DNA of 64,000 bases from Chloroflexota bacterium (GTDB lineage: Bacteria; Chloroflexota; Anaerolineae; J102): positions 23,050 to 87,049 of the forward strand of contig JAYRVO010000064.1 in assembly GCA_041918515.1 (NCBI GenBank), given 5' to 3'. A program made the position numbers and the translations under genes. The notes under the pieces were generated by a model. The model searched no databases. It had not been told where the DNA came from and saw only the letters and a program-made list of their open reading frames with translations. Shown here piece after piece: positions 14,178 through 44,479 of this stretch (the stretch's first letter is position 1; each line of letters begins with the position of its first letter).

Positions 14178-14570
14178 ATGGCTCATCTCCCCATTTCTGA
14201 ACAGGAAGAGCATATCGCCAGGCATATTGTGGACGCGGCGTTTACGGTTCACCGCACGCTTGGGCCTGGTCTGCTGGAGAGCGTGTATGAAGTTTGTTTC
14301 TGCCACGAGCTTGCTAAACGAGGCCTGTCACACCAACGACAGGTTGTCGTACCGATTCTTTACGATGGCCTCTGCATCGATGATGGCCTGCGGCTCGATG
14401 TTCTTGTCGAAGAGTTGGTCATTTGCGAATTGAAAGCCGTGGAAGTGGTTCATCCTGTATTTACGGCGCAATTGCTGACCTATCTGAAACTGACCGAAAA
14501 ACGGCTGGGATTTCTCATCAACTTCAATGTGCCCTTGATCAAGCAGGGTATCCAACGCTTTGTTCTTTGA
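14178..14570 (+). CDS. GxxExxY protein (PD-(D/E)xK nuclease-like fold family)
   Basis: 131 aa. GPGLLESVYEVCFCHEL is the GxxExxY motif. Conserved ..GFLINFN C-terminus. Confidence 0.65.
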   Translation: MAHLPISEQEEHIARHIVDAAFTVHRTLGPGLLESVYEVCFCHELAKRGLSHQRQVVVPILYDGLCIDDGLRLDVLVEELVICELKAVEVVHPVFTAQLLTYLKLTEKRLGFLINFNVPLIKQGIQRFVL

Positions 14571-14940
14571 ACTTTGTGCCTTTGTGTCTTCGTGGTGAAT
14601 ATAACCACCTCCACTTTCACACCAGCCATGCTCTTCCGCTCCTTGTTCTTTGACCTTCGTGCCTTTGTGTCTTCGTGGTGAATATAACCACCTCCACTTT
14701 CACGCCAGCTATGCGCTTCCGCTCCTTGTTCTTTGACCTTCGTGCCTTTGTGTCTTCGTGGTGAATATAACCACCTCCACTTTCACGCCAGCTATGCGCT
14801 TCTGCTCCTTGTTCTTTGACCTTCGTGCCTTTGTGTCTTCGTGGTGAATATAACCACCTCCACTTTCACACCAGCTATGCGCTTCCGCTCCTTGTTCTTT
14901 GACCTTCGTGCCTTTGTGTCTTCGTGGTGGATGGAGTTTT
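14561..14940. repeat. 83-bp tandem repeat, about 4.6 copies
   Basis: The motif tgttctttga recurs at 14561, 14644, 14727, 14810 and 14893 (period 83). Unit: ..gtgcctttgtgtcttcgtggtgaatataaccacctccactttcac(g/a)ccagc(c/t)atgcgcttc(c/t)gctccttgttctttgacc. An imperfect inverted copy (cacgaagacacgaag) lies at 14130-14170. Confidence 0.9.
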
Positions 14941-14945
14941 GACTG

Positions 14946-17900
14946 ATGTATTTCCGCCTTGAACTTACCCCCCGCCGCGGCCCGGACGACGGCCGCGCCA
15001 AAGCCACCCTGGCCACTTGCCGCGCCCTCGGCCTGACCGACCTCCCCCCCGTCGTCGTCTCCGACCTCTACTTCCTCGACGCCGACTTGTCCTTGCCCGA
15101 AGTCGAAGCCCTGGCCGCCACCGCCCTCCTCGACCCCGTCGCCGCCGAGCTTGTCGTTCAGCCACAGCCACAGCCATCGTCCATCGTCCATCGTCCATCG
15201 TCCGTCGAAATCACCTTCCTCCCTGGCGTCACCGACAGCGTGGCCGACAACCTGCTGGCGGTGGCGCACAGCCTGGGCTACGAAAACGTGCGGGCGGCGG
15301 CATCCGGCTTGAGCTACAGCTTCCTCGGCGAAGTCACCCCCACTGACCTCGACCACATCGCCCGCGACCTTTTGGCGAACGGCACCGTGCAACGCTATGT
15401 GATCGGCCAGCAGATTGCGCCGCCGTTCGTGGAAACGCACGAGCTGGCCGCGGGTGAGCGTTTGGTCGAGACCATCGCCATTCGAGATCAGGGCGAAACC
15501 GGGCTGCTCGCTCTCAGCCGTGAGCGCCGCCTCAGCCTCGATCTGGCAGAGATGCAAGCGATCCAGGCGTATTTTCGCAGTGAAGGTCGCGAGCCAACCG
15601 ATGTCGAGCTGGAAACCCTGGCGCAGACCTGGTCCGAGCATTGTGTGCACAAAACGTTTCGGGCGGAGGTGGAGTACCGGAGCGAGGAGGGAGATATCCC
15701 CGCTTCTTCGCCTCCCGTTTCCTCGCCTCTCCTCATCGACGGCCTGCTGAAGACGTATATCCGGGCAGCGACGGAGGCGGTGAATAAGCCGTGGGTGCGC
15801 TCAGCGTTTGTGGACAACGCCGGCATCATCGCCTTCGACGACACGTTCGACCTGGCCTTCAAGGTGGAAACGCACAACCACCCCTCGGTGCTGGAGCCGT
15901 TCGGCGGAGCGGACACGGGTGTGGGCGGGGTCATCCGCGACATTTTGGGCGTCAGCGCCAAGCCCATCGCCAACACCGACGTGCTCTGCTTTGGGCCGGA
16001 AGACTTGCCGGATGACAAACTCCCGGCCGGGGTGCTGCACCCGCGCCGCGTCGCCGCCGGGGTCATCCACGGCATCGAAGATTACGGCAACAAGATGGGC
16101 ATCCCCACCGTGAATGGAGCCGTGCACTATCATCCCGGCTACACCGCCAACCCGCTGGTCTATTGCGGTTGCCTGGGCATTTTGCCGCGCGGCAGCCACC
16201 GTTCGTTGCACGAAGCGCAGGCTGGCGACCTCATCGTCGCCATCGGCGGGCGCACGGGGCGCGACGGGCTGCGCGGGGCCACGTTCTCCAGCATGGAAAT
16301 GGATCACACCACCGGGGCCATCGCCAGCACCGCCGTGCAGATCGGCAACCCCATCGTCGAAAAGCAAGTGATGGAGGTGATCCTGCGGGCGCGCGACGCT
16401 AGGCTGTACAACGCCATCACCGACTGCGGCGCCGGCGGATTCAGCTCGGCGGTGGGCGAGATGGGCGAGCACGTGGGCGCGAGCGTGCAGCTTCAGGGCG
16501 TTCCGCTCAAATATCCGGGCTTGCAGCCGTGGGAGATTTGGCTTTCGGAGGCGCAAGAGCGCATGGTGCTGGCCATCTCGCCAGCCCATTGGCTGGCATT
16601 CCAGCAGATTTGCCGGGCGCACGATGTCGAAGCCAGCATCCTGGGCGAGTTCGATGGCTCCGGCCGATTGCGCGTGGCCTACGGCGAGACAATCGTGGCC
16701 GATCTCGACATGCACTTCCTGCACGATGGCGTCCCCCGCCGCCGCCTCACGGCCGTTTGGTCCCCGCCCGACCTGGCCAACCCCAACCCCGCCTCCTCGC
16801 CTCCTCCCCACCTCGCCTCCTCACTCCTCCGCCTCCTCGCCTCCGCCAACATCCGTTCGCGTGCCCCCATCATCCACCGCTACGACCATGAAGTCCAGGG
16901 CGGAACGGCTGTCAAGCCGCTAGTCGGGGTCGATCAGTGCGGGCCGAGCGACGCAGCAGTCGTGATCCCCCAACCGCTCCTCGCCTCCTCTTCCCCACCC
17001 GCAACTCGCCACCCGTTTCCCGCAGCCGTTTTGTCCGCCGGCCTCAACCCCCGCTACGGCCTCATCGACCCGTATGCTATGGCCTGGGCCTGCGTGGACG
17101 AGGCTTTTCGCAATGCCGTGACTGTGGGCGCTGACCCCGACCGTATCGCCATCCTCGACAATTTTTGCTGGGGCAACCCCAATCTACCCGACCGCCTTGG
17201 CGCGCTCGTGCGCTGCGCCCAGGGCTGTTTCGATGCTGCCATCGTTTATCAAACGCCTTTCATCTCTGGCAAAGATAGCTTGAACAATGAGTACATGGGC
17301 GAGGATGGCCAGAAGCACGCCATCCCCGGAACCCTGCTCATCTCCGCCCTCGGCATTGTCCCGGATGTGACCCGCACGACCACGAGTGACCTGAAAGCGC
17401 CCGGCGATTATCTTTATCTTTTGGGCGAGACTCGCCCCGAACTCGGCGGCTCGGCCTATCTCGACCTGCTCGGCGAAATCGGCACTTCCGTCCCCCAATC
17501 CTATCCTGCCCCGCTCGACCGCCTGCGCGCTCTGCACGGGGCCATCGCCGCCGGACTCGTGCGCGCCTGCCACGACCTCAGCGAAGGCGGGCTGGCCGTG
17601 GCCCTGGCCGAAATGTGCATCGGCGGCGGTTTGGGAGCGGAAATCAACCTGTCAAGCATTCCTCCCCAATCCTCAATAACCAATACCCAATTACTTTTCT
17701 CCGAATCCCTCGGCCGCTTCCTGATCGAGGTCGAGCCTGGCCATGCGGTCGAGTTCGAAGCGATGCTGGCAGGGCAGCCCGTGGCGTCGATCGGACGGGT
17801 GACCGCCGAGAAGAATATGGTTCTTGACGCTGGAACTGAGCGCGTCGAGGTCTCGATTGCCGACCTGAATCATGCTTTCTGTGGAGAACCGGCGCCATGA
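14946..17900 (+). CDS. purL: phosphoribosylformylglycinamidine synthase subunit PurL with N-terminal PurS-like extension
   Basis: 984 aa. PurL AIR-synthase-related domains (HKTFRAEVEY, ETHNHPSVLEPFGGADTGVGGVIRD, AIGGRTGRDG). Contains several in-frame low-complexity repeat inserts. Confidence 0.85.
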   Translation: MYFRLELTPRRGPDDGRAKATLATCRALGLTDLPPVVVSDLYFLDADLSLPEVEALAATALLDPVAAELVVQPQPQPSSIVHRPSSVEITFLPGVTDSVADNLLAVAHSLGYENVRAAASGLSYSFLGEVTPTDLDHIARDLLANGTVQRYVIGQQIAPPFVETHELAAGERLVETIAIRDQGETGLLALSRERRLSLDLAEMQAIQAYFRSEGREPTDVELETLAQTWSEHCVHKTFRAEVEYRSEEGDIPASSPPVSSPLLIDGLLKTYIRAATEAVNKPWVRSAFVDNAGIIAFDDTFDLAFKVETHNHPSVLEPFGGADTGVGGVIRDILGVSAKPIANTDVLCFGPEDLPDDKLPAGVLHPRRVAAGVIHGIEDYGNKMGIPTVNGAVHYHPGYTANPLVYCGCLGILPRGSHRSLHEAQAGDLIVAIGGRTGRDGLRGATFSSMEMDHTTGAIASTAVQIGNPIVEKQVMEVILRARDARLYNAITDCGAGGFSSAVGEMGEHVGASVQLQGVPLKYPGLQPWEIWLSEAQERMVLAISPAHWLAFQQICRAHDVEASILGEFDGSGRLRVAYGETIVADLDMHFLHDGVPRRRLTAVWSPPDLANPNPASSPPPHLASSLLRLLASANIRSRAPIIHRYDHEVQGGTAVKPLVGVDQCGPSDAAVVIPQPLLASSSPPATRHPFPAAVLSAGLNPRYGLIDPYAMAWACVDEAFRNAVTVGADPDRIAILDNFCWGNPNLPDRLGALVRCAQGCFDAAIVYQTPFISGKDSLNNEYMGEDGQKHAIPGTLLISALGIVPDVTRTTTSDLKAPGDYLYLLGETRPELGGSAYLDLLGEIGTSVPQSYPAPLDRLRALHGAIAAGLVRACHDLSEGGLAVALAEMCIGGGLGAEINLSSIPPQSSITNTQLLFSESLGRFLIEVEPGHAVEFEAMLAGQPVASIGRVTAEKNMVLDAGTERVEVSIADLNHAFCGEPAP

Positions 17901-18490
17901 CAACCGGATCACCATCCCCTGCCGGCCTGCCCATTCTGCTGTTCACGAACCCGCAAGAATGGGCCGATTGGCTCGACCGCTATCACGCCGATGCTGCTGG
18001 CGTGTGGCTACGCCTGGCGAAGAAGGCATCCAGCCTGACGTCCGTGACTTACGACGAGGCGGTGGAGGTGGGGCTGTGTTATGGCTGGATCGATGGCCAG
18101 AGCAAGCGCTATGACGCCGATTCATGGCTACAGAAGTTCACGCCGCGTTCGTCCAAGAGCATTTGGTCGAAAGTGAACACGCAAAAGGCGCAGAGACTGA
18201 TCGCAGAGGCCCGGATGAAACCGGCGGGGCTGCGGGAGGTGGAGCGCGCCAAGCAAGATGGACGTTGGGCAGCGGCGTATGACCCCCAGAGCACGGCTGT
18301 CGTTCCCGAAGATTTGCAGGTCGAACTCGACGACAATCCGGAGGCGAAGGCATTCTTCCAGACTCTCGACAGCCGCAATCGTTACGCCATCCTGTTCCGC
18401 ATCCAGACCGCCAACAAGCCCGAGACCCGCGTAAAGCGAATTCAGCAATTTATGGCCATGCTGGCGAAAGGGGAGAAGTTGTATCCATGA
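17897..18490 (+). CDS. YdeI/OmpD-associated family protein
   Basis: GVWLRLAKK..YDEAVEVGLCYGWIDGQSKRYDADSWLQKFTPRSSKSIWSKVN pattern. Overlaps the purL stop. Confidence 0.65.
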   Translation: MTTGSPSPAGLPILLFTNPQEWADWLDRYHADAAGVWLRLAKKASSLTSVTYDEAVEVGLCYGWIDGQSKRYDADSWLQKFTPRSSKSIWSKVNTQKAQRLIAEARMKPAGLREVERAKQDGRWAAAYDPQSTAVVPEDLQVELDDNPEAKAFFQTLDSRNRYAILFRIQTANKPETRVKRIQQFMAMLAKGEKLYP

Positions 18491-18555
18491 TACCCATCGC
18501 CATCCTCCACGCCCCCGGCACGAACCGGGACACCGACGCCGCTATCGCTTGTTAG
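18487..18555 (+). pseudogene. remnant duplicate of purQ 5' end
   Basis: ATGATACCCATCGCCATCCTCCACGCCCCCGGCACGAACCGGGACACCGACGCCGCTATCGCT is near-identical to the genuine purQ start at 19318 (MIPIAILHAPGTNRDTDAAIA vs MPPPPIAILHAPGTNRDTDAAIA). Terminated by TAG, then the TA cassette. Confidence 0.55.
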
Positions 18556-18981
18556 TTAGCCAGTCTTCCAAGCTTCGCTTAGGAAGCCACGTGGGGTGAC
18601 AATAGCAACGCCACGGAATGGATTGAGCCGAAGCAAATCACTATCTCCACTCACAATGCACTTTGCATTCCCACTGACCGCAAGCTCGATAAACTTATCG
18701 TCGCTAGGGTGACGGCAAGCTCGGATACGTTCGGCCGCTTCGATGAGTTTGGTTTCCCGCAGTAGCACAGCCAGGAATTCAAGTCGTTCCTCTTCACTTA
18801 CATACCTGGCAAAACCAGGACGCCCCAGCACTTCATTCAGCTCAGAGAGAGTCTCCACAGAAACGAGCAGATCACCATCGGCGATTGCTTTATCGAAAGC
18901 TTGACGTGGCAGCGAATGCTTCAATAAAGCTGCACCAACAACCGCATTCGTATCGAACACGAAACGTGGTCTAACGCTCAC
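18556..18981 (-). CDS. PIN domain toxin (type II TA system)
   Basis: RFVFDTNAVV..(acidic residues)..CIVSGDSDLL layout of PIN nucleases. 141 aa. Confidence 0.7.
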   Translation of the reverse strand: MSVRPRFVFDTNAVVGAALLKHSLPRQAFDKAIADGDLLVSVETLSELNEVLGRPGFARYVSEEERLEFLAVLLRETKLIEAAERIRACRHPSDDKFIELAVSGNAKCIVSGDSDLLRLNPFRGVAIVTPRGFLSEAWKTG

Positions 18982-19198
18982 GTAGCAACTCTTCGAGTTT
19001 TTCTTCAGTCAATCCACGTTCCATTGCTTTGTCACTCATTTCATCCATGATGTTGGCTAAAGAACTAGAACGAGTCGCGTATTCACGTAGCCAAAGATTC
19101 ATCAGCATCTGTAGTTTTGATTTGGTCTCTTTCGATGCCGAACGATAGGCTTGTGCTAATTCGGAATCGACTTGCAGTGTGACAGTGGCAAGCGCCAT
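18971..19198 (-). CDS. antitoxin (cognate to PIN toxin), start uncertain (19198-19246)
   Basis: Small ORF overlapping the PIN start by 11 nt (MALATVTLQVDSELAQAY...EEKLEELLRER). Confidence 0.5.
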   Translation of the reverse strand: MALATVTLQVDSELAQAYRSASKETKSKLQMLMNLWLREYATRSSSLANIMDEMSDKAMERGLTEEKLEELLRER

Positions 19199-19317
19199 TT
19201 CGTTTCGCTCCTGTAATCCATTTGAGGAACTCATCATGCTGTTCACATTATAGCACCCTCATCCTGGTCTCCTCAATTCCTCGCCCCTTCGCCCCCTCAA
19301 CTCCCTCGCCTCACCCC

Positions 19318-20136
19318 ATGCCCCCACCTCCCATCGCCATCCTCCACGCCCCCGGCACCAACCGGGATACCGACGCCGCCATCGCTTTCGAGCTGGCTGG
19401 CGGCAGCCCTGAAATCGTCCACGTCAACCAACTTCTCGCTGGCGAACGCCGCCTCGCTGACTACGCCCTGCTCGTCGTTCCCGGCGGCTTCTCGTATGGC
19501 GACGACCTGGGCGCGGGCAAACTGTGGGCCGTGCGCCTGCTGCACGATCTCGGCGAGCAGCTTCGTGCTTTTGCGGATGCGGGCAAACCCATCCTCGGCA
19601 TCTGCAACGGATTCCAGGTGCTGGTGAAGACGGGGCTGCTGCCGGGAGCAGGGGACGAAGGTGGCAAGTGGCAGGCGGCAATCTCCAATAACCAATCTCC
19701 AATAACCAATCTCCAACTCGCCACCCTCACCCGCAACGAATCCGCGCATTTCGAATGCCGATGGGTGTGGCTAGAGCCGAATGTTGCCAATCGTTCACCC
19801 TGGTTGGCCGGACTCGACCGCATCCATTGCCCGGTAGCGCATGGCGAAGGCAACTTCATGACCCGCGACGCCGCTGCACTCGATGCCATCCTGTCGCAAA
19901 ACCTCGTTGCCTTCAGCTATGTCGATGCCGATGGCCGCCCCGGCCCCTATCCGATCAACCCCAACGGCTCGGCCGCCGACATCGCCGGCGTGACGAACGC
20001 CAGCGGCAACATCCTCGGCCTGATGCCACATCCCGAAGACCATATCTTTCCCTGGCAGCACCCGGCGTTCCATCGCGGCACGGCCGGCTGTTCCGGTCTG
20101 AAACTTTTCCAGAATGGCGTCTCCATGACAAAGTGA
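19318..20136 (+). CDS. purQ: phosphoribosylformylglycinamidine synthase subunit PurQ (glutamine amidotransferase)
   Basis: IAILHAPGTNRD, GGFSYGDD, GICNGFQVL (Cys) and HPE motifs. Contains an in-frame ccaataacc/ccaatctcc insert ([17 protein letters not shown]). Confidence 0.85.
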   Translation: MPPPPIAILHAPGTNRDTDAAIAFELAGGSPEIVHVNQLLAGERRLADYALLVVPGGFSYGDDLGAGKLWAVRLLHDLGEQLRAFADAGKPILGICNGFQVLVKTGLLPGAGDEGGKWQAAISNNQSPITNLQLATLTRNESAHFECRWVWLEPNVANRSPWLAGLDRIHCPVAHGEGNFMTRDAAALDAILSQNLVAFSYVDADGRPGPYPINPNGSAADIAGVTNASGNILGLMPHPEDHIFPWQHPAFHRGTAGCSGLKLFQNGVSMTK

Positions 20137-20236: not shown

Positions 20237-21508
20237 ATGACTGTCACCGCAATCGTCGGCGCCCAATGGGGCGATGAAGGCAAAGGCCGCATCATCGACA
20301 ACCTGGCCCAGCAGGCCGATGTCGTCATCCGCTTTCAGGGCGGCGACAACGCCGGCCACACCGTCATCAACCAGTTCGGCAAACACGCCCTCCATCTCGT
20401 CCCCAGCGGCATCTTCAACCCCGCCACCCAAAACATCATCGGCACGGGCTGCGTCGTCAACCCGCAATCGCTGTTGGCCGAGCTGGAAGGTCTGACCGCC
20501 GCTGGGGTCAACCTCGATAACCTGTGGATCAGCTCCCGCGCTCAAATGCTGCTGCCCTATCATCGCACGCTGGATGTGCTGGAAGAAGGTGCGCGGGGCA
20601 AAGACACCATCGGCACCACCAAGCGCGGCATCGGCCCGGCCTATGCCGATAAATCCGCTCGCGCGGGCTTGCGCATGGGCGACTTGCTCCAACCCGATTG
20701 GCTGGAATCCCGGCTGGATAGCGCACTCGGCAGCGTCAACCGCAAGCTGCAAATCCTGGGCGGCGAACTTATCGACGGCTCGGAATTGTACGCGTTGTGC
20801 CTGGAGTTCAGAGAAAAGCTGGGGCGACGGATCATCGACACCGTCCCCATGATCCGCCGTTCGCTCGAAATCGGCGCCGACATCTTGCTGGAAGGCCAGC
20901 TCGGCGTCATGCGCGACCTCGATTGGGGCATCTACCCCTATGTGACCAGCAGCAACCCCACTGCCGCCTATGCCGCCAGCGGGGCCGGACTGCCCGCCCG
21001 CTGCATCGACCGCGTCATCGGCGTCGTCAAAGCCTACAGTACGGCTGTGGGCGACGGCCCCTTCCCCACCGAACTGCACGACGCCGACGGCCAGAAACTG
21101 CGCGAGATCGGCCAGGAGTTCGGGGCCACCACCGGCCGGCCCCGGCGCTGCGGCTGGTTCGACGGCGTGGCCATTGGTTATGCCGCCTGGCTTAACGGCA
21201 TGACTGGCCTGGCCATCACCAAGCTGGATGTGCTCGACGCCTTCGAGACGATCAAAATCTGCACGGGCTACCGCCTGCCTTCGGGCGAGATCATCACCGA
21301 TTCCATGCCCGCCACCCCCACGCTCTACCAAGTCACGCCGGTGTACGAAGCCTGGGACGGCTGGCTGACCTCGACCGCCGACTGCCGCCGTTGGGACGAT
21401 CTGCCCAAGCAGGCGCGGGCCTACATCCACCGCCTGAGCGAATTGGCCGGGATCAAGGTCGATTATGTGTCCGTCGGGCCGGAGCGGGAGCAGATGTTTG
21501 CGGTTTGA
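20237..21508 (+). CDS. purA: adenylosuccinate synthetase
   Basis: [21 protein letters not shown] and [10 protein letters not shown] motifs with GTP-binding elements. Confidence 0.92.
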
Positions 21509-21568
21509 CCCACCGCCTGCGACGGGATAGAATGCGAGTAATCGGAATTTCGGAAATCAGGAGGAGCT

Positions 21569-21847
21569 ATGGCCACTGACACGATTCAGATGCGCGCCAA
21601 GGGCAGCATCACCATTCCAATTGAATATCGAAAGAAATATGCGCTCGAGGAAGGTGATGTGTTTACACTCGTAGATCTCGGAGATGGAAGCTTCGTAATC
21701 GTGCCGCGCGTATCATTACTGCCGAAACTAGTGGCTGAACTCGAAGCCATTCGCGAGGAAGCCGGCGTCACGGTCGAGGATCTATTGGCTGATGTTCCCA
21801 AATACCGCCAACAGATCTACGAGGAACGCTATCGTGGGCGGTTCTGA
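21569..21847 (+). CDS. AbrB/MazE/SpoVT-type antitoxin
   Basis: IQMRAKGSITIPIEYRKKYALEEGDVFTL swapped-hairpin pattern. AGGAGG ribosome-binding site. Confidence 0.6.
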   Translation: MATDTIQMRAKGSITIPIEYRKKYALEEGDVFTLVDLGDGSFVIVPRVSLLPKLVAELEAIREEAGVTVEDLLADVPKYRQQIYEERYRGRF

Positions 21848-22295
21848 AACGAACGCGCCGCGTATCTTCTTTGACACTTCTGTCGTGTTGGCCTGCGCGT
21901 TTTCAAAGAGGGGTGCCAGCTATGTTCTAATCGAGCTGGCAAACCTCACGCTGATCGAAGGGCGTATTTCGCCTGACGTGCGTGAGGAGGTGTTGCGCAA
22001 TGCTCCTTCGAAGATGCCTGCGGCTATGCCTGCCTTGCGCTCGATCCTTTCCGAATATCTGATCGAAGGTCCGGCGCCATCGGCTGAAATGCTGATCACG
22101 ATGCGCGGCTATGCTGACGTCAAAGATGTCCCCATCCTGGCGGCAGCGATCGAGCAGAGGTGTCGGTACCTGGTGACGCTGAACGAGCGCGATTTTTGGC
22201 CGCCCTCAACTTTGATCACAATTGTGCGCCCGGGCGATCTGCTCTCGGCTATTCGGAAGCAGGTTGGTACGTTGATCATGGGAAATGATTTGTAG
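21834..22295 (+). CDS. PIN domain toxin
   Basis: GTG start overlapping the antitoxin stop. [19 protein letters not shown] acidic residues. Confidence 0.6.
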
Positions 22296-22302
22296 GTTTG
22301 CC

Positions 22303-22388
22303 CTACCTTCACCGCCTGAGCGAACTGGCTGGGATCAAAGTCGATTATGTGTCCGTAGGGCCGGAGCGGGAGCAGATGTTTGCGGTTT
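22303..22388 (+). repeat. copy of purA 3' end (..[24 protein letters not shown]-stop)
   Basis: About 90% identical to 21421-21508 at nucleotide level, including the stop codon. Confidence 0.85.
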
Positions 22389-22496
22389 GACGCCCCGCCT
22401 CTGGCCGCATCCCTGTTTGATTGGATATCGACGGGGTGGCATAATAGGGGCCAGAATTTATTCCTAATTCGAGGGCCAGCTCAGGAGGCCATGCTC

Positions 22497-22730
22497 ATGG
22501 AACGGGTTAAGGTCAGTCTAACGCCCCCGCTAAACGAATTTCTTAGCCGCCACGCATTCTACGGCTTCTCGGATAAGAGCGCGATGGCCCGCGCCGCTTT
22601 GTCTCGCCTGAAAGAAGAGATTGAGTTGCAGCTTCTGCAGCAATCCGCCGATCTGTATGCTGAGGAGTATGAAGATGATCGGGAATTGCAGGAATTGACG
22701 AAAGCGGCGCTGGCAGGATGGCCAGAATGA
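22497..22730 (+). CDS. RHH/CopG-like antitoxin (MazE-type partner)
   Basis: MERVKVSLTPPLNEFL... AGGAGG 8 nt upstream. ATGA overlap with mazF. Confidence 0.5.
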   Translation: MERVKVSLTPPLNEFLSRHAFYGFSDKSAMARAALSRLKEEIELQLLQQSADLYAEEYEDDRELQELTKAALAGWPE

Positions 22731-23083
22731 GCGCCCTGCGACGGGGGATGGTGGTCGAGGTCGATCTCGATCCGACGCTTGGTTCGGAGACAGGGAAGAC
22801 GCGGCCATGCGTGATCGTGACGAACGATGTCTACAACGAACGCGTGCCTGTGATTCAGGTTGTTCCGATCACGGCCTGGAGCGAGAACAAGGGCCGGATC
22901 AGGACGAACGTCGAGCTATTCCCCAGTTCTGATAACGGCTTGACGAAACGGTCGGTGGCCGATTGTCTGCAAACTCGTCCGGTCGATCATCGCTTGCGAT
23001 TGGTCGCCATTCTGGGTGAGCTAACAAAAACAGAAATGGGGCAGATCGATGAGGCACTAAAAGTCATATTTGCGCTAAAATGA
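22727..23083 (+). CDS. mazF: MazF/PemK family endoribonuclease toxin
   Basis: [30 protein letters not shown] is the MazF/PemK signature. Confidence 0.75.
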
Positions 23084-23215
23084 GCGAGCTGGCCGGAATC
23101 AAGGTCGATTACGTGTCGGTGGGGCCGGAGCGAGAGCAGATGTTTGCGGTATGACCGACCACTCCACCTACCTCTCCCCCTTCACCTGGCGCTATGGCTC
23201 CGACGCCAGTCGCTT
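23084..23215 (+). repeat. copy of purA 3' end fused (ATGA) to a purB-like 5' start ([19 protein letters not shown])
   Basis: gagcgagctggccggaatcaaggtcgattacgtgtcggtggggccggagcgagagcagatgtttgcggtatgaccgaccactccacctacctctcccccttcacctggcgctatggctccgac. Confidence 0.8.
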
Positions 23216-23252
23216 TTTCTCTTCGATTTGCCGCCCGCCATTTGTCGTACTA

Positions 23253-23275
23253 TGCTTTCTCGTACTTACACTATA
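23253..23275. promoter_or_regulatory. palindromic operator-like site upstream of the phd/doc-like pair
   Basis: tcgtacttacactataagtacga (9-bp inverted repeat) with an extra gtcgtacta half-site upstream. Typical of TA autoregulation. Confidence 0.35.
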
Positions 23276-23308
23276 AGTACGAGTACCCCAACAGGACGAG
23301 ATCAAATC

Positions 23309-23551
23309 ATGGTGCGCAAAATCTTCCGAACCGGCAACAGCATGGTCATCGCCCTGCCCAAAGAAATGCTCGATCCCCTTCGTCTGGGCGAAGGCGCCGA
23401 GGTGGATGTGCAGTTCGACCGCGCCCGCGGGGTGATCACCGTCTCGCCAGCGCCGGTGATGGTCAAAGGCGTGGATGAGGATTTCGCCCGGCAGGTCAGC
23501 GAGTTCATCGACCAATACCGTCCTGCCCTGGAAGCTCTGGCGCGGGCATGA
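23309..23551 (+). CDS. AbrB-type Phd-like antitoxin
   Basis: MVRKIFRTGNSMVIALPKEML. ATGA overlap with doc. Confidence 0.55.
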   Translation: MVRKIFRTGNSMVIALPKEMLDPLRLGEGAEVDVQFDRARGVITVSPAPVMVKGVDEDFARQVSEFIDQYRPALEALARA

Positions 23552-23931
23552 TCTATCTCTCGGTCGAGCAAGTACTGTTCGTCCACATGCGCTTGATCAG
23601 CGAGATTGGCGGTAGCCCTGGCATCCGTGATCTGGCGCTGCTGGCATCGGCAGTGGCTCGACCGCAGGCTATTTTTGGCGGCCAGTACCTCTATCCCGAC
23701 CTGGCCAGCAAGGCGGCGGTGCTCATGGATTCGCTGATGCGCAACCACCCTTTTATCGATGGCAATAAGCGAGTGGGAATCACGGCCGCCAGCTTGTTCC
23801 GGCAATTGAATGGCTACAGATTGACCGCATCCTCTGCCGAAGTCGAACTCTTCACCCTCCAGGTTGCCCGCTCGGAACTGACGCAAGTGCAGATCGCCGC
23901 CTGGTTTCGCTCTCACGGCGCCGCAAATTGA
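23548..23931 (+). CDS. doc: Doc (death-on-curing) toxin, Fic/Doc family
   Basis: HPFIDGNKRVGITAASLF Fic/Doc motif. 127 aa. Confidence 0.8.
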   Translation: MIYLSVEQVLFVHMRLISEIGGSPGIRDLALLASAVARPQAIFGGQYLYPDLASKAAVLMDSLMRNHPFIDGNKRVGITAASLFRQLNGYRLTASSAEVELFTLQVARSELTQVQIAAWFRSHGAAN

Positions 23932-23990
23932 CCGACCACACCACCTATCTTTTCCCTTTCACCCAGCATTGCGGCTCCGATGACATGCCT
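23929..23990 (+). repeat. degenerate copy of purB-like 5' start
   Basis: tgaccgaccacaccacctatcttttccctttcacccagcattgcggctccgatgacatg. Confidence 0.6.
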
Positions 23991-24016
23991 CGGGGCCAGG
24001 CTGCCTCGCCCCGTTT

Positions 24017-24025
24017 GTGGTATCA
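24017..24025 (+). promoter_or_regulatory. extended -10 promoter candidate (TGGTATCAT)
   Basis: TGnTATCAT upstream of the MNT/HEPN pair. Confidence 0.3.
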
Positions 24026-24074
24026 TGGCTCGTAACATACGATTGAGCGCGACCTGTTCTGTGATCGTGAAACT

Positions 24075-24431
24075 ATGTCGCAAACGAACGCCACAGGAAC
24101 ACACCCTGTTCGCTACACTCCCTCTCCAACCGTCGAAACGCTACGCGAGGCAGCGCCCAGCTTTTGGGCGGATTTGACTCGCGCACACATGATATTGCAG
24201 GAGGCGGGGTGTACTGATATCTACGTCTTTGGGTCGCTGGTTAGCGGGCGGGCGCGTTCGGATTCAGATATCGATTTAGCGGTGCGGGGTTGCCCTAAAG
24301 GTAAGTTCTTCCATTTGCTTGGACAGCTCATGTTCCAGTTGGAGCATCCTGTGGATTTAGTCGATCTTGATGGGAATCACTCGTTTGCCGAATTCCTGGA
24401 GAGAGAAGGGGGCCTGGTGCGAATTGAATGA
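24075..24431 (+). CDS. MNT nucleotidyltransferase antitoxin (Pol-beta superfamily)
   Basis: YVFGSLVSGRARSDSDIDLAV NTase motif. Confidence 0.7.
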   Translation: MSQTNATGTHPVRYTPSPTVETLREAAPSFWADLTRAHMILQEAGCTDIYVFGSLVSGRARSDSDIDLAVRGCPKGKFFHLLGQLMFQLEHPVDLVDLDGNHSFAEFLEREGGLVRIE

Positions 24432-24894
24432 GAAATTTGTATCTCAGATTCGTTTTGAAGTTGGGGAAATCGAACACCTGATCGTCGCCTATGCAGAGTT
24501 GCTGGCGACATCTGTCAGCACGATGCCAGATCAGGTGCACCTTGCTGCTTTGGCGGCAGTCTTGCATTCGTTTTATTCTGGCGTGGAGCGGATTTTTCTG
24601 ACCATCGCCAATTCGATTGATGGCATGACGCCTACAGGACAGCAGTGGCATCGTGATTTGCTCGCACAAATGACCATTGCCACTCGACATCGTCAGTCGG
24701 TTTTGTCAACTGGAGCAGCGGCGCACTTACGCGACTACTTGGCATTTCGTCACTTCTTCCGACATACGTACTCGTTCTATCTGGATTGGGATGAGATGGC
24801 AGAACTTGTGCGAATGCTACCAGCGGTTTGGGCAGAGACGAAAGGGGACATCGAACACTTTCTCACAACGATTGATCTACCACACAGGCCGTGA
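24425..24894 (+). CDS. HEPN domain toxin (HepT-like), probable TTG start overlapping MNT stop
   Basis: Adjacent and overlapping an MNT gene. Alpha-helical ~155 aa protein with an R(x)4-6H-like region (RHRQSV..RHFFRHT). Confidence 0.55.
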
Positions 24895-24940
24895 GAGTGG
24901 ACCACACCACCTACCTCTCCCCCTTCACCTGGCGCTACCA
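24893..24940 (+). repeat. short copy of purB-like 5' start
   Basis: gtggaccacaccacctacctctcccccttcacctggcgcta. Confidence 0.6.
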
Positions 24941-25018
24941 CGTCTTTGCGATGCCCAATTTCTTGCGACTTGCCCTCTAAAACTTGGTGTGCTAACCTGC
25001 ATTTCAGGAGACTCAACT

Positions 25019-25312
25019 ATGATCAACCAGGTGACACTCACTTCGCCGCGGCAGCGCCCACTCAAACCACTCATCGAAGCGGCGTTGAACAGCGAGATGC
25101 GACTTCTGCAAACCGCCATCCAACGCACCGAACGACATCTGCAGGAATTCGAGGTCGCTTATGGCATGACGAGTGACGAATTTGTGCGGCGTTTTGAAAA
25201 CGATGACTTGCCAGAAACGCTCGACTTCGTCGACTGGATCGGCGAGTATCGGCTCTTGAACCGGTTGAGCGATAAAGCAGATGCCTTCATGGAGATCAAG
25301 TTTGCTCATTGA
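25019..25312 (+). CDS. hypothetical protein (first gene of unassigned two-gene cassette)
   Basis: 98 aa. AGGAG ribosome-binding site 8 nt upstream. Overlaps the next ORF. Confidence 0.4.
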   Translation: MINQVTLTSPRQRPLKPLIEAALNSEMRLLQTAIQRTERHLQEFEVAYGMTSDEFVRRFENDDLPETLDFVDWIGEYRLLNRLSDKADAFMEIKFAH

Positions 25313-25691
25313 CGTCTACTTTCGCCAGATCGCCGAGCTAATCGAAAATTGTGCGATCGTGCAGTCAGCGAATGTCGCCTACGACAAACGGGGCAGGTAT
25401 GAGGGATATATACGCGGGGAAATCTATTTTGTCGATGGCTCAGTTCTCCATCTTCGTGAATTCATCGATGTGGAATCCGAGGTGGAGCGCCTTACCTATG
25501 CCTACCAATACATGAACGCCAACCAGGCATTGATATTTCGCTATGACAACACGGGGCACCATCGGAGACTTCTGTTGCCCACCCATCCCCATCACAAGCA
25601 TGTTGGTGGCGAGACCACCGTGATTGCCTCGTCCGCGCCTCATCTCGCCGAAGTGCTCGATGAAATCCTGATGTCAATGACCTGGACCTGA
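25281..25691 (+). CDS. hypothetical protein (second gene of unassigned cassette, putative TA-like)
   Basis: About 130 aa. Overlaps the upstream gene. No motif I can assign. Confidence 0.35.
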
Positions 25692-25957
25692 TGACCGACC
25701 ACACCACCTACCTCTCCCCCTTCACCTGGCGCTGCGGCTCCGACGACATGCGCCAGATTTTCTCCGAAATCCATCGCCGCAAGCTGTGGCGGCGGATTTG
25801 GGTGGCGCTCTCGCCCAGACCCTGCAAGATTTGGGGGTCGATTGGGAAGAAATCCGCCGGGCGCGGGCCTACATCCACCGCCTGAGCAAACTGGCCGGGA
25901 TCAAAGTCGATTACGTGTCCGTCGGGCCAGAGCGGGAGCAGATGTTTGCGGTTTGAG
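25691..25957 (+). pseudogene. chimeric fragment: purB-like 5' end (~50 codons, frameshifted) joined to purA 3' end
   Basis: [38 protein letters not shown], then (after a 1-nt shift) [49 protein letters not shown]-stop. The N-terminus resembles E. coli PurB (SP.DGRYG...IFSE...VEVRWL). Confidence 0.55.
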
Positions 25958-26014
25958 CATCTAAATCATAGGTTTACCAGATAGCAATTCTTTTCACCAA
26001 GGAGCCTTCATTTC

Positions 26015-27151
26015 GTGGATATTTCCCCTTACGGCGTCCCTCAAAACCGTCGCCATCGCGTGCTGGCGGCCATCCGGCACGAAGAAACCGACTACACACC
26101 CTACAACTTTCACTCCATCCCCATGGTCTACCACGCCATCCGGGATTACTACGGCCTGCGGGATAGCGAGGAAGTGGCGGATTTCATCGGCAACCACGTC
26201 GTCAAGATTGGCACCGACTTCAACTACAACCCCTGGGCCAGCGAGATCAAACAGCTCGACCTGACCCCCAGCGGCGGCCCTGTCCACACCAATCTCGACG
26301 CCAAAGGCGAGCTGCACATGGACGAATTTGGCTGCGTGTGGGACCGGCAGTCGGGCATGCCCCACCCCGTGGCCTATCCCATCGCTGATGACCACCGCAA
26401 GCTGGAGAGCTACCAGATGCCTGACCCCCACCGTCAGGGTCGTTTCGACCAGGCCCAAGCCCTGGCCGACCGCTGGCGCGACAAAGCCTTCATCTTTGGC
26501 AAGCTGGGCATGGTGATGTTCGAACGCGCCTGGAGCATTCGCAGCATGCCGCAACTGATGATGGACATGAAAAAACGCCCGGAATTCGTCCACGAGCTGA
26601 TGGATCGCATCCTCTATGAGTGGGATTTGCCCATCATCGACCTGCAATGCGACATCGGCATCGACGGCATGTACTTCGCCGATGATTGGGGCACCTCGGC
26701 CGGCCTCATGTTCAGCCCCGACTATTGGCGCACCTTCATCAAGCCCCGGCTGGCCGTCATCTTCAATCGCTGTCACCAGAACGGCGTCTACGTCGGCCTG
26801 CACTCCGACGGCAAGATCGCCCCGCTCTTCCCCGAACTGATCGAGATTGGGCTGGACATCTTCAATCCCCTGGAGCCGGCGGCCATGGACCGGCTGGAAA
26901 TAAAGCAGCTGTACGGCGACAAACTCACCTTCTACGGCGGGCTGGATGTCGAGCACACCATGCCCTTCGGCACAGCCGAAGACGTGCGCCAGGAAACGCG
27001 CTGGCTGGTGGAGAACCTGGGCAAAGGCGGCGGCTACATCCTGCAGACCAGCCATCAGGTGCTGTGGGACACGCCGATGGCGAATATCGTCGCCTACATC
27101 GAGGAGGTGCGGGCGATGGCAGGGTTGGAGACGCCGCGGGTAAACTCGTGA
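26015..27151 (+). CDS. uroporphyrinogen decarboxylase (URO-D) family protein (methyltransferase/decarboxylase fold)
   Basis: 378 aa. URO-D-like architecture. C-terminal region (GGGYILQTSH) typical of MtaA/CmuA/URO-D family. Confidence 0.7.
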   Translation: MDISPYGVPQNRRHRVLAAIRHEETDYTPYNFHSIPMVYHAIRDYYGLRDSEEVADFIGNHVVKIGTDFNYNPWASEIKQLDLTPSGGPVHTNLDAKGELHMDEFGCVWDRQSGMPHPVAYPIADDHRKLESYQMPDPHRQGRFDQAQALADRWRDKAFIFGKLGMVMFERAWSIRSMPQLMMDMKKRPEFVHELMDRILYEWDLPIIDLQCDIGIDGMYFADDWGTSAGLMFSPDYWRTFIKPRLAVIFNRCHQNGVYVGLHSDGKIAPLFPELIEIGLDIFNPLEPAAMDRLEIKQLYGDKLTFYGGLDVEHTMPFGTAEDVRQETRWLVENLGKGGGYILQTSHQVLWDTPMANIVAYIEEVRAMAGLETPRVNS

Positions 27152-39333: not shown

Positions 39334-40692
39334 TCATTCGTGCTGGCGGCCAGCGACGCGATCGACGAACACCCCTGCCAGGCCGGTGTAGGCATCGGGG
39401 TTCAGCATGGCGTCGATCTCGGCCGCTGTGAGGTGGGTGGTGACGTGCTCGTCGGCCAGAAGCAGGTCGCGCAAGGGCCGGCCTTGCTCGAAGGCCAGCA
39501 TCGAGGCTGCGTGCACGACTTCATGGGCTTGCTGGCGGCCCAGGTGCTCGCCCAGTTTCAGCATGACGGCCTCGGAGAGCGGCAGGCCCAGCAACTGATC
39601 GAGGTTGCGGCGCATGCGGTCGGGGTAGACGATGAGGCCGCTGATGGCGCGCAGGGTGTGGGCGACCGCCCCTCCCGTAAGAATGCTGGCTTCGGGGATG
39701 ACGGCCCACTCGATGTGCATCGACGACCAATCCCGCTCGTGCTCAGCCTCCATGGCTGCCAACAGTGCCGGCGTCAACCCGCGCACGAGGCGCGCCTGGG
39801 CCATGATGCCTTCGCACAGCATGGGGTTGCGCTTGTGCGGCATGGTGCTGGACCCCACCTTGCCGCGCTGATAAGGTTCTTCGACCTCAGCTACTTCTGA
39901 TTTTTGCAGCAATATGATCTCGTGGGCGATCTTGCCCATGGTGGCAGCCACCAAAGCCAGGACGGAGACGTACTCGGCCATGCGGTCGCGGGCGGGATGC
40001 CAACAGATGTCGGGGGTTCCCAAGCCCAGATCGGCCATCAGGCGTTGTTGGATGTCCAGCCCGATCTCGCCCACCGAGGCCAGCGTGCCGGAGGCCCCGG
40101 CGAATTCGCCGACGAAGAGGCGCGGGGCCATCTCTTCCATGCGGGTGATGTGCCTCTGCACCTCGGATAGCCAGATGGCGACTTTGTAGCCGAAGGTGAT
40201 GGGGGTGGCGTGTTGGCCGTGTGTGCGTCCCGGCATCAGGGTGTCGCGATGACGGCGGGCTAGATCGGTCAATGCCGTGGCCAGGGCCTGCAGGTCGCGC
40301 AGGATGATGGCGTGGGCGCGCTTCATCTGCAAGATGAGGCCGGTGTCGGCCACGTCCTGCGTGGTGGCGCCCCAATGCACCCAGCCGCCAGCATCGCCGG
40401 CGCAGCGGGCCGAGAGCTGCCAGATGAGGGGGACCAGCTCGTGAGTGGTTTGGTCGATGCCGCGTTTGAGTGCGACGAAGTCGATGTTCTCCGCCGCGAA
40501 AGCCCGCGCCTGGCGCGTGATCTCTTGCGCGGCGGCGGCGGGGATCAGGCCAACGGCAGCTTCGGCGCGGGCCAGCGCGGCTTCGAAATCGAGCCAGGAC
40601 TGCACCATGGCTTCGTCGCTGAAGGCGCGGCGCAATTCCTCGGTGCCGTACATGTCTTGAAAGAGGAGGGAATCGATGACGTGGGAGGGCAT
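39334..40692 (-). CDS. adenylosuccinate lyase / 3-carboxy-cis,cis-muconate cycloisomerase family protein (PcaB-like)
   Basis: LFQDMYGTEELRRAFSDEAMVQSWLDFEAALARAEAAVGLIP and GSSTMPHKRNP (fumarate-lyase signature). Confidence 0.75.
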   Translation of the reverse strand: MPSHVIDSLLFQDMYGTEELRRAFSDEAMVQSWLDFEAALARAEAAVGLIPAAAAQEITRQARAFAAENIDFVALKRGIDQTTHELVPLIWQLSARCAGDAGGWVHWGATTQDVADTGLILQMKRAHAIILRDLQALATALTDLARRHRDTLMPGRTHGQHATPITFGYKVAIWLSEVQRHITRMEEMAPRLFVGEFAGASGTLASVGEIGLDIQQRLMADLGLGTPDICWHPARDRMAEYVSVLALVAATMGKIAHEIILLQKSEVAEVEEPYQRGKVGSSTMPHKRNPMLCEGIMAQARLVRGLTPALLAAMEAEHERDWSSMHIEWAVIPEASILTGGAVAHTLRAISGLIVYPDRMRRNLDQLLGLPLSEAVMLKLGEHLGRQQAHEVVHAASMLAFEQGRPLRDLLLADEHVTTHLTAAEIDAMLNPDAYTGLAGVFVDRVAGRQHE

Positions 40693-40708
40693 GATGGCGA
40701 TGTGCTTT

Positions 40709-44479
<3,771 letters not shown>

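Follow-up and report, generated by a model that had tools for sequence, protein, structure and literature searches.

The toxin-antitoxin pairs of the TumE-TumA family were named and validated by Durairaj et al. (Nature 2023; PMC10584680). Proteins of the DUF6516 group, to which the toxins were first assigned, are usually encoded downstream of a small partner (PMC10584680). Six gammaproteobacterial TumE toxins arrested growth of E. coli and their partners neutralised them, while lowered incorporation of 35S-methionine was shown for TumE of Allochromatium tepidum alone and an RNase activity of TumE was put forward as a proposal (PMC10584680). The pair described here is found in a stretch of 64,000 nucleotides, referred to below as the window, of a metagenome-assembled genome of the Chloroflexota (Caldilineales), not of a gammaproteobacterium. 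Its organisation is that of the published family: a small partner gene, overlapping or adjacent in the family and overlapping here, lies upstream of the toxin gene, its product appears distantly homologous to TumA, and the TumE domain spans the whole toxin. The sizes are also similar, with 97 and 129 residues here against approximately 75-105 and 115-130 residues for the experimental constructs, as judged from the lengths of the synthetic DNA. The experiments concern the gammaproteobacterial pairs. Judged by these family matches, the pair represents in Chloroflexota a diverged subfamily of the family published in 2023. The explanation that we privilege as a whole, and hold with high confidence, is that of a type II module of the TumA-TumE superfamily, whose function is deduced from its relatives and which was probably brought in by recombination anchored in the start of purB. 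The features of the locus are collected in Table 1.

Table 1. Coordinates of the tumA-tumE pair and of the surrounding array in the window, and neighbours of related pairs in other loci.
Feature	Position	Strand	Remarks
tumA-like antitoxin gene	25019..25312	+	ATG start, 97 aa (98 codons with stop)
Ribosome-binding site of tumA, AGGAG	25006..25010	+	8 nt 5' of the ATG; kept in L001 and L002
tumE toxin gene	25302..25691	+	TTG start, 129 aa; assigned by Pfam PF20126, NCBIfam TumE and AlphaFold
Ribosome-binding site of tumE, GGAG	25291..25294	+	7 nt 5' of the TTG at 25302, within the 3' end of tumA
Candidate promoter	24970..24998	+	TTGCCC 24970-24975, 17-nt spacer, TG 24990-24991, TAACCT 24993-24998
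Five-cassette toxin-antitoxin array	21509..25956	+	A1, MazE-PIN, A2, ?-MazF, A3.B1, MazE-Doc, B2, NTase-HepT, B3, TumA-TumE, B4-A4
A1, native purA end	21412-21508		purA ends at 21508
A3.B1	23081-23208		intact purA-stop/purB-start ATGA overlap preserved in mid-array
B3, relic of the purB 5' start	24894..24938	+	bounds the cassette on the left; starts immediately 3' of the HepT stop; BLAST and alignment of copies
B4, decayed purB relic	25691..25859	+	codons 1-40 fused to 161-186; tblastn with the intact purB of L097
A4, relic of purA (its last 97 nt)	25860..25956	+	95% identical to 21412-21508; right end of the array
ABC transporter			neighbour of the 96-aa gene and tumE pair in L003-L006
PIN pair and sugar operon			neighbours of the 96-aa gene and tumE pair in L007
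Aldolase			neighbour of the 96-aa gene and tumE pair in L008-L010

The earlier note on this DNA had found neither protein to carry a known toxin or antitoxin motif, and had proposed a Pfam search of both. This search assigns the toxin to a family and leaves the antitoxin without one. The downstream protein contains the core quoted in that note ([24 protein letters not shown]...YAYQYM...IFRYDN.GHH) and clearly belongs to Pfam PF20126 "Toxin TumE", formerly DUF6516. It matches profile positions 1-78 of 81 with 81.1 bits (E 5.9e-23), over threefold the gathering score of 23.4 bits. Its match to NCBIfam NF045777, an equivalog model built around the validated group, covers positions 6-122 of 122 and scores 58 bits (E about 1e-15) where an equivalog would need 90 bits, and all 35 sampled relatives match the same TumE model. 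By its sequence, TumE of the window is thus a full-length homologue, not an equivalog, of the experimentally studied TumE proteins. The AlphaFold2 model, built on 35 sequences, has a pLDDT of 91.5 and a pTM of 0.84, and is made of a helix (residues 3-15), seven beta strands and a second helix (residues 115-125). This predicted fold matches the published one, in which two helices lie on a seven-stranded antiparallel sheet. A PDB sequence search with both proteins gave nothing meaningful, and the TumE fold has no confident relative among the solved structures. The residues invariant among the toxins are retained, namely E40, R52, E53, D56, Y66/68/70, FRYDN 79-83, H86 and P96-H97-H98-x-H100 (numbering of the 129-residue form). 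The invariant polar block from E40 through R80-Y81-D82-N83 to H100 is a plausible active site, and the histidines, aspartates and arginines among its invariant positions provide a short list for mutagenesis.

The upstream protein is small and helical and appears, from its sequence, to be a distant homologue of antitoxin TumA. Its likeness to NCBIfam NF045776 "antitoxin TumA" is confined to the central 42 residues (38-79; E 3.4e-7, 30 bits for a cut-off of 100), and each of the 32 members of its family that were compared matches the TumA model below the equivalog cut-off, the best with an E of 2.8e-9. The AlphaFold model of the protein has three helices and a pLDDT of 88.5. Pfam gives just a chance-level match, under the cut-off, to a phage UDG inhibitor. 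Since both proteins of the pair score under the NCBIfam equivalog cut-offs, their subfamily is not that of the six gammaproteobacterial pairs. Some TumA-like relatives are tandem duplications, like P0159 (194 aa) with two matched stretches, and others, like P0269 (501 aa), sit as a domain at the C-terminus of a far longer protein.

The architecture of two small overlapping genes on the same strand preceded by an AGGAG ribosome-binding site, from which the earlier note had argued for a toxin-antitoxin pair, is as it described, and the family matches bear that argument out; the 98 residues that it gave to the first protein are 97, with 98 codons including the stop, and the second protein has 129. 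An alternative start of tumE at ATG 25281 would yield 136 residues and an overlap of 32 nt with tumA, instead of 11 nt from TTG 25302. Sequence favours the TTG as the better supported start because GGAG is placed 7 nt upstream, because it is the start of public protein P0008 (129 aa, same contig of 151,856 nt), and because the homologues of TumE are mostly 129-130 residues long. The candidate promoter of tumA-tumE was spotted by eye and scores under the threshold of the consensus scan; the promoter and terminator scan made no call at the cassette. Both hexamers of this element are kept in L001 and L002, two loci of an independent metagenome that carry the closest copy of the pair, with a different spacer, and the homology of the cassette with L001 starts at 24969, precisely at the candidate promoter. 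No palindromic or inverted-repeat operator was found upstream of tumA (24890-25030), and Rfam detected no RNA family in the region from 17 to 28 kb of the window.

By analogy with the six other pairs, free TumE would stop growth by blocking protein synthesis, the proposed route being RNA cleavage, and TumA would bind and neutralise it. TumA probably also represses the operon's own promoter, the candidate being the element described above. Translation of tumE may be coupled to that of tumA through the short overlap of the genes and the internal GGAG.

One alternative concerns the role of the pair and not its identity: the TumA-TumE module could serve anti-phage defence by abortive infection, instead of plasmid or island stabilisation or selfish persistence. 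Both proteins match the component models of the PADLOC candidate defence system PDC-M44 (A, E 1.5e-7; B, E 5.5e-17), and the pair is clustered with toxin-antitoxin types of known defence roles, like HepT/MNT and PIN. However, PDC entries are candidates only, and a search of the literature for DUF6516, for PDC-M44 and for arrays of toxin-antitoxin cassettes at purB found nothing beyond the 2023 paper (PMC10584680), hence no paper on PDC-M44. The published experiments on TumE addressed toxicity, not phage defence (PMC10584680), and there are no phage genes near the pair. We regard a defence role as rather unlikely.

Homologues of TumE number more than 479 at 56% identity or above, all of them in PF20126, and the TumA-like protein has 31 close homologues of 96 residues; these counts exclude that either ORF arose by chance. 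A profile search with the TumA-like protein retrieves 783 cluster representatives (E up to 1e-3). In the loci examined the TumA-like gene is always directly 5' of tumE, and a 96-residue gene overlapping to the same extent a tumE gene of 129 or 136 residues recurs in at least three unrelated contexts (Table 1). The pair thereby adds to the TumE family a Chloroflexota subfamily with several hundred metagenome relatives. In the closest copy (L001 5001-5672; L002 1924-2595; 88% nucleotide identity to L001) a single ORF of 223 residues is called. There tumA is joined, by a frameshift close to its end, to the tumE frame beginning at the position of ATG 25281; an error in sequencing, decay or a natural fusion could each account for this. 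In the next cassette of L001 the PIN gene is broken as well.

That the pair of the window is itself a non-functional relic in a decaying array is improbable. The array does hold decayed fragments, which comprise purB relics with an internal deletion and relics of the purA end, and the frameshifted closest copy, together with the broken PIN gene beside it, indicates that members of the lineage do decay. In the window, however, both ORFs are of full length, every residue invariant in the two family alignments is kept, and the ribosome-binding sites and the conserved promoter-like element are in place. The dN/dS values against L001 are 0.18 for tumA and 0.17 for tumE. The comparison of sequences thus speaks for two intact genes under purifying selection (dN/dS about 0.17). 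The claim of the earlier note that the pair is unassigned and a candidate novel toxin-antitoxin family, to which the scores below the NCBIfam equivalog cut-offs and the lack of a Pfam family for the antitoxin could lend some credit, is refuted by the TumE, TumA and PDC-M44 matches taken with the family description of 2023, by the Pfam score of the toxin at over threefold its threshold, by the full-length TumE matches of all 35 sampled relatives and the TumA matches of all 32 antitoxins and by the agreement of the predicted TumE fold with the published one, and we give it next to no credence.

The TumA-TumE pair itself changes little, and the array with its purine-gene scars is the more unusual feature. 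The four recognisable toxin-antitoxin pairs that the earlier note had seen around it are confirmed by Pfam as MazE with PIN, a protein without hit with PemK/MazF, MazE with Fic/Doc, and a nucleotidyltransferase with HepT. Between the cassettes lie copies of the last 74-97 nt of purA (A copies) and of the first 40-120 nt of purB (B copies), four of each by BLAST. Of the purB start, a core of 32 nt is found three times in the window, where none would be expected by chance. The A copies have complete 3' ends and varying left truncation points. Three of the four B copies begin at the position of the purB start codon and B3 a few nucleotides in, and all four are cut at variable right-hand points. 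With a GC content of 51-58%, the array lies below the flanking pur genes, which have 60-67%. The purB-start repeats reported on both sides of the TumA-TumE cassette are real, but the upstream copy spans just about 40 nt and the downstream copy is a decayed relic. B3 is 100% identical at 24900-24938 to real purB genes in L097 and L099, and B4 has 91.6% nucleotide identity at 25691-25809 to the first 119 nt of purB in L097. The ATG of B4 shares an A with the stop codon of tumE, and B4 runs directly into A4. No intact purB was found in the window. The gene at 39334-40725 on the minus strand, which is the sole gene of the fumarate lyase family in the window, was rejected as a real purB; it has 31% identity to purB and is a different member of the family.

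To the right of the array, a gene of the URO-D family (26016-27141) is 90.6% identical to genes of other Caldilineales (L104-L111). In those genomes a sugar ABC transporter and a dehydrogenase precede the gene, and neither flank is common with the window, which indicates that the array sits at a synteny breakpoint.

The array recalls integron cassette arrays in its tandem two-gene cassettes that lie on the same strand, contain promoters and have short repeats between them, and in that its cassettes are found in another order in a different array, that of L001. The repeats of the window differ from attC hairpins, however, being fragments of the purA 3' end and purB 5' end of variable length. 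The boundaries carry no attC-type imperfect inverted repeats, as those of an integron array would: no inverted repeat recurs at them, and the four pairs detected in 21400-26100 all lie within coding sequence of the first two cassettes. Between 10 and 29 kb, where the ORF translations were read and the neighbours were searched with Pfam, no ORF resembling an integrase was noticed.

Comparable loci are found in other genomes. In L001 and L002 the same TumA-TumE cassette is followed by a decayed purB start of 250 nt and then by a MazE-PIN cassette that is 74% identical to the first cassette of the window, so that the two arrays share these cassettes but differ in their order and neighbours. That L001 is a circularly permuted form of the array (purB relic, purA relic, first cassette) was considered and rejected, because the 250-nt purB relic abuts MazE-PIN without a purA fragment between them. 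L097 (1-1828) and L099 have an intact purB of 474 residues with a MazE-Doc cassette directly 5' of it, such that the purB ATG overlaps the Doc stop; the identity of this cassette to the third one of the window is 76%. The Doc gene of these loci is shorter than that of the window by about 160 nt. The purA|purB ATGA overlap is found also in L102. Metagenome contigs Ga0114921_10071668 (L092) and Ga0209979_1005603 (L098) form an occupied and empty site pair with flanks that are 96% identical. The purB gene of L092 carries an antitoxin and RelE pair as an insert at codons 8-12; the antitoxin takes over the ribosome-binding site and the first eight codons of purB, and the inserted cassette supplies purB with a new start (MDSYTHE...). 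In the closest purA loci, L011 and L014 (78-79% identity), purA is followed by unrelated genes and not by purB, and the repeats are absent. Among the relatives, no empty site of the window array was found.

From these scars we infer that toxin-antitoxin cassettes were inserted one after another, anchored by homology, where purA once adjoined purB, and that the array was then imported as a whole. Cassettes would have been added singly beside purA or purB in a donor lineage in which the two genes overlapped. Each addition would combine recombination anchored in the conserved gene end with an illegitimate join on the other side, and would leave a truncated gene fragment behind. A fragment spanning purA into purB would then have been imported into the genome of the window at the 3' end of purA, leaving A4 as the displaced native end. 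Arrival by recombination anchored in the 5' end of purB would likewise explain why purB-start fragments flank the TumA-TumE cassette. Campbell-type insertion of circles carrying a short purA/purB segment would give the same scars.

The broader reading of the purA-end and purB-start fragments as scars of a recombinase-free collection of toxin-antitoxin cassettes is one that we propose tentatively, as a real possibility that falls somewhat short of being probable. Cassettes located directly 5' of purB, or 3' of purA, would travel with a piece of that gene, TumA-TumE and a purB start forming one such unit. The travelling piece would include the purB stretch [11 protein letters not shown]. The 28 nt that encode this stretch recur without a mismatch in 13 metagenome contigs with purB genes otherwise about 62-71% identical, a figure biased by the choice of these contigs through the 28-nt match. 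The cassettes would integrate by homologous recombination at the purB or purA anchor with an illegitimate join opposite, and each integration would push the previous gene fragment outward, such that an array builds up. Supporting cases elsewhere are the occupied and empty site pair and the Doc cassette directly before an intact purB.

A recombinase-free collection of this kind would resemble homology-facilitated illegitimate recombination and the orphan-module arrays of polymorphic toxins. In these, as in the window, displaced gene fragments accumulate beside the cassettes, and one end of the insert lies exactly at a conserved gene end while the other is a variable truncation, with some microhomology. 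The difference is that here the process is deduced from the scars that it would have left. To our knowledge, homology-facilitated illegitimate recombination is undescribed for toxin-antitoxin cassettes at purine-gene junctions. The array would preserve, as a natural record, the stacking of five toxin-antitoxin cassettes where purA and purB formerly met. If the reading is true, conserved ends of housekeeping genes would act as landing pads through which toxin-antitoxin genes spread and accumulate without a dedicated recombinase.

The same pattern is seen at the 5' start of purQ, of which a 58-nt direct repeat (95% identical) is found at 18487-18550 and 19318-19387. The two copies flank a PIN gene on the minus strand (18556-18981) and a small gene upstream of it (18971-19246). 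In the upstream copy the N-terminus reads MIPIAILH instead of MPPPPIAILH, and the ATG of this copy overlaps with the stop codon of a YdeI/OmdA gene (17897-18490), which for its part overlaps the purL stop. A tandem repeat with a unit of 83 nt (14560-14929; 4.5 copies, 97% matches) lies between purL and a small gene that follows guaB and ends at about 14570.
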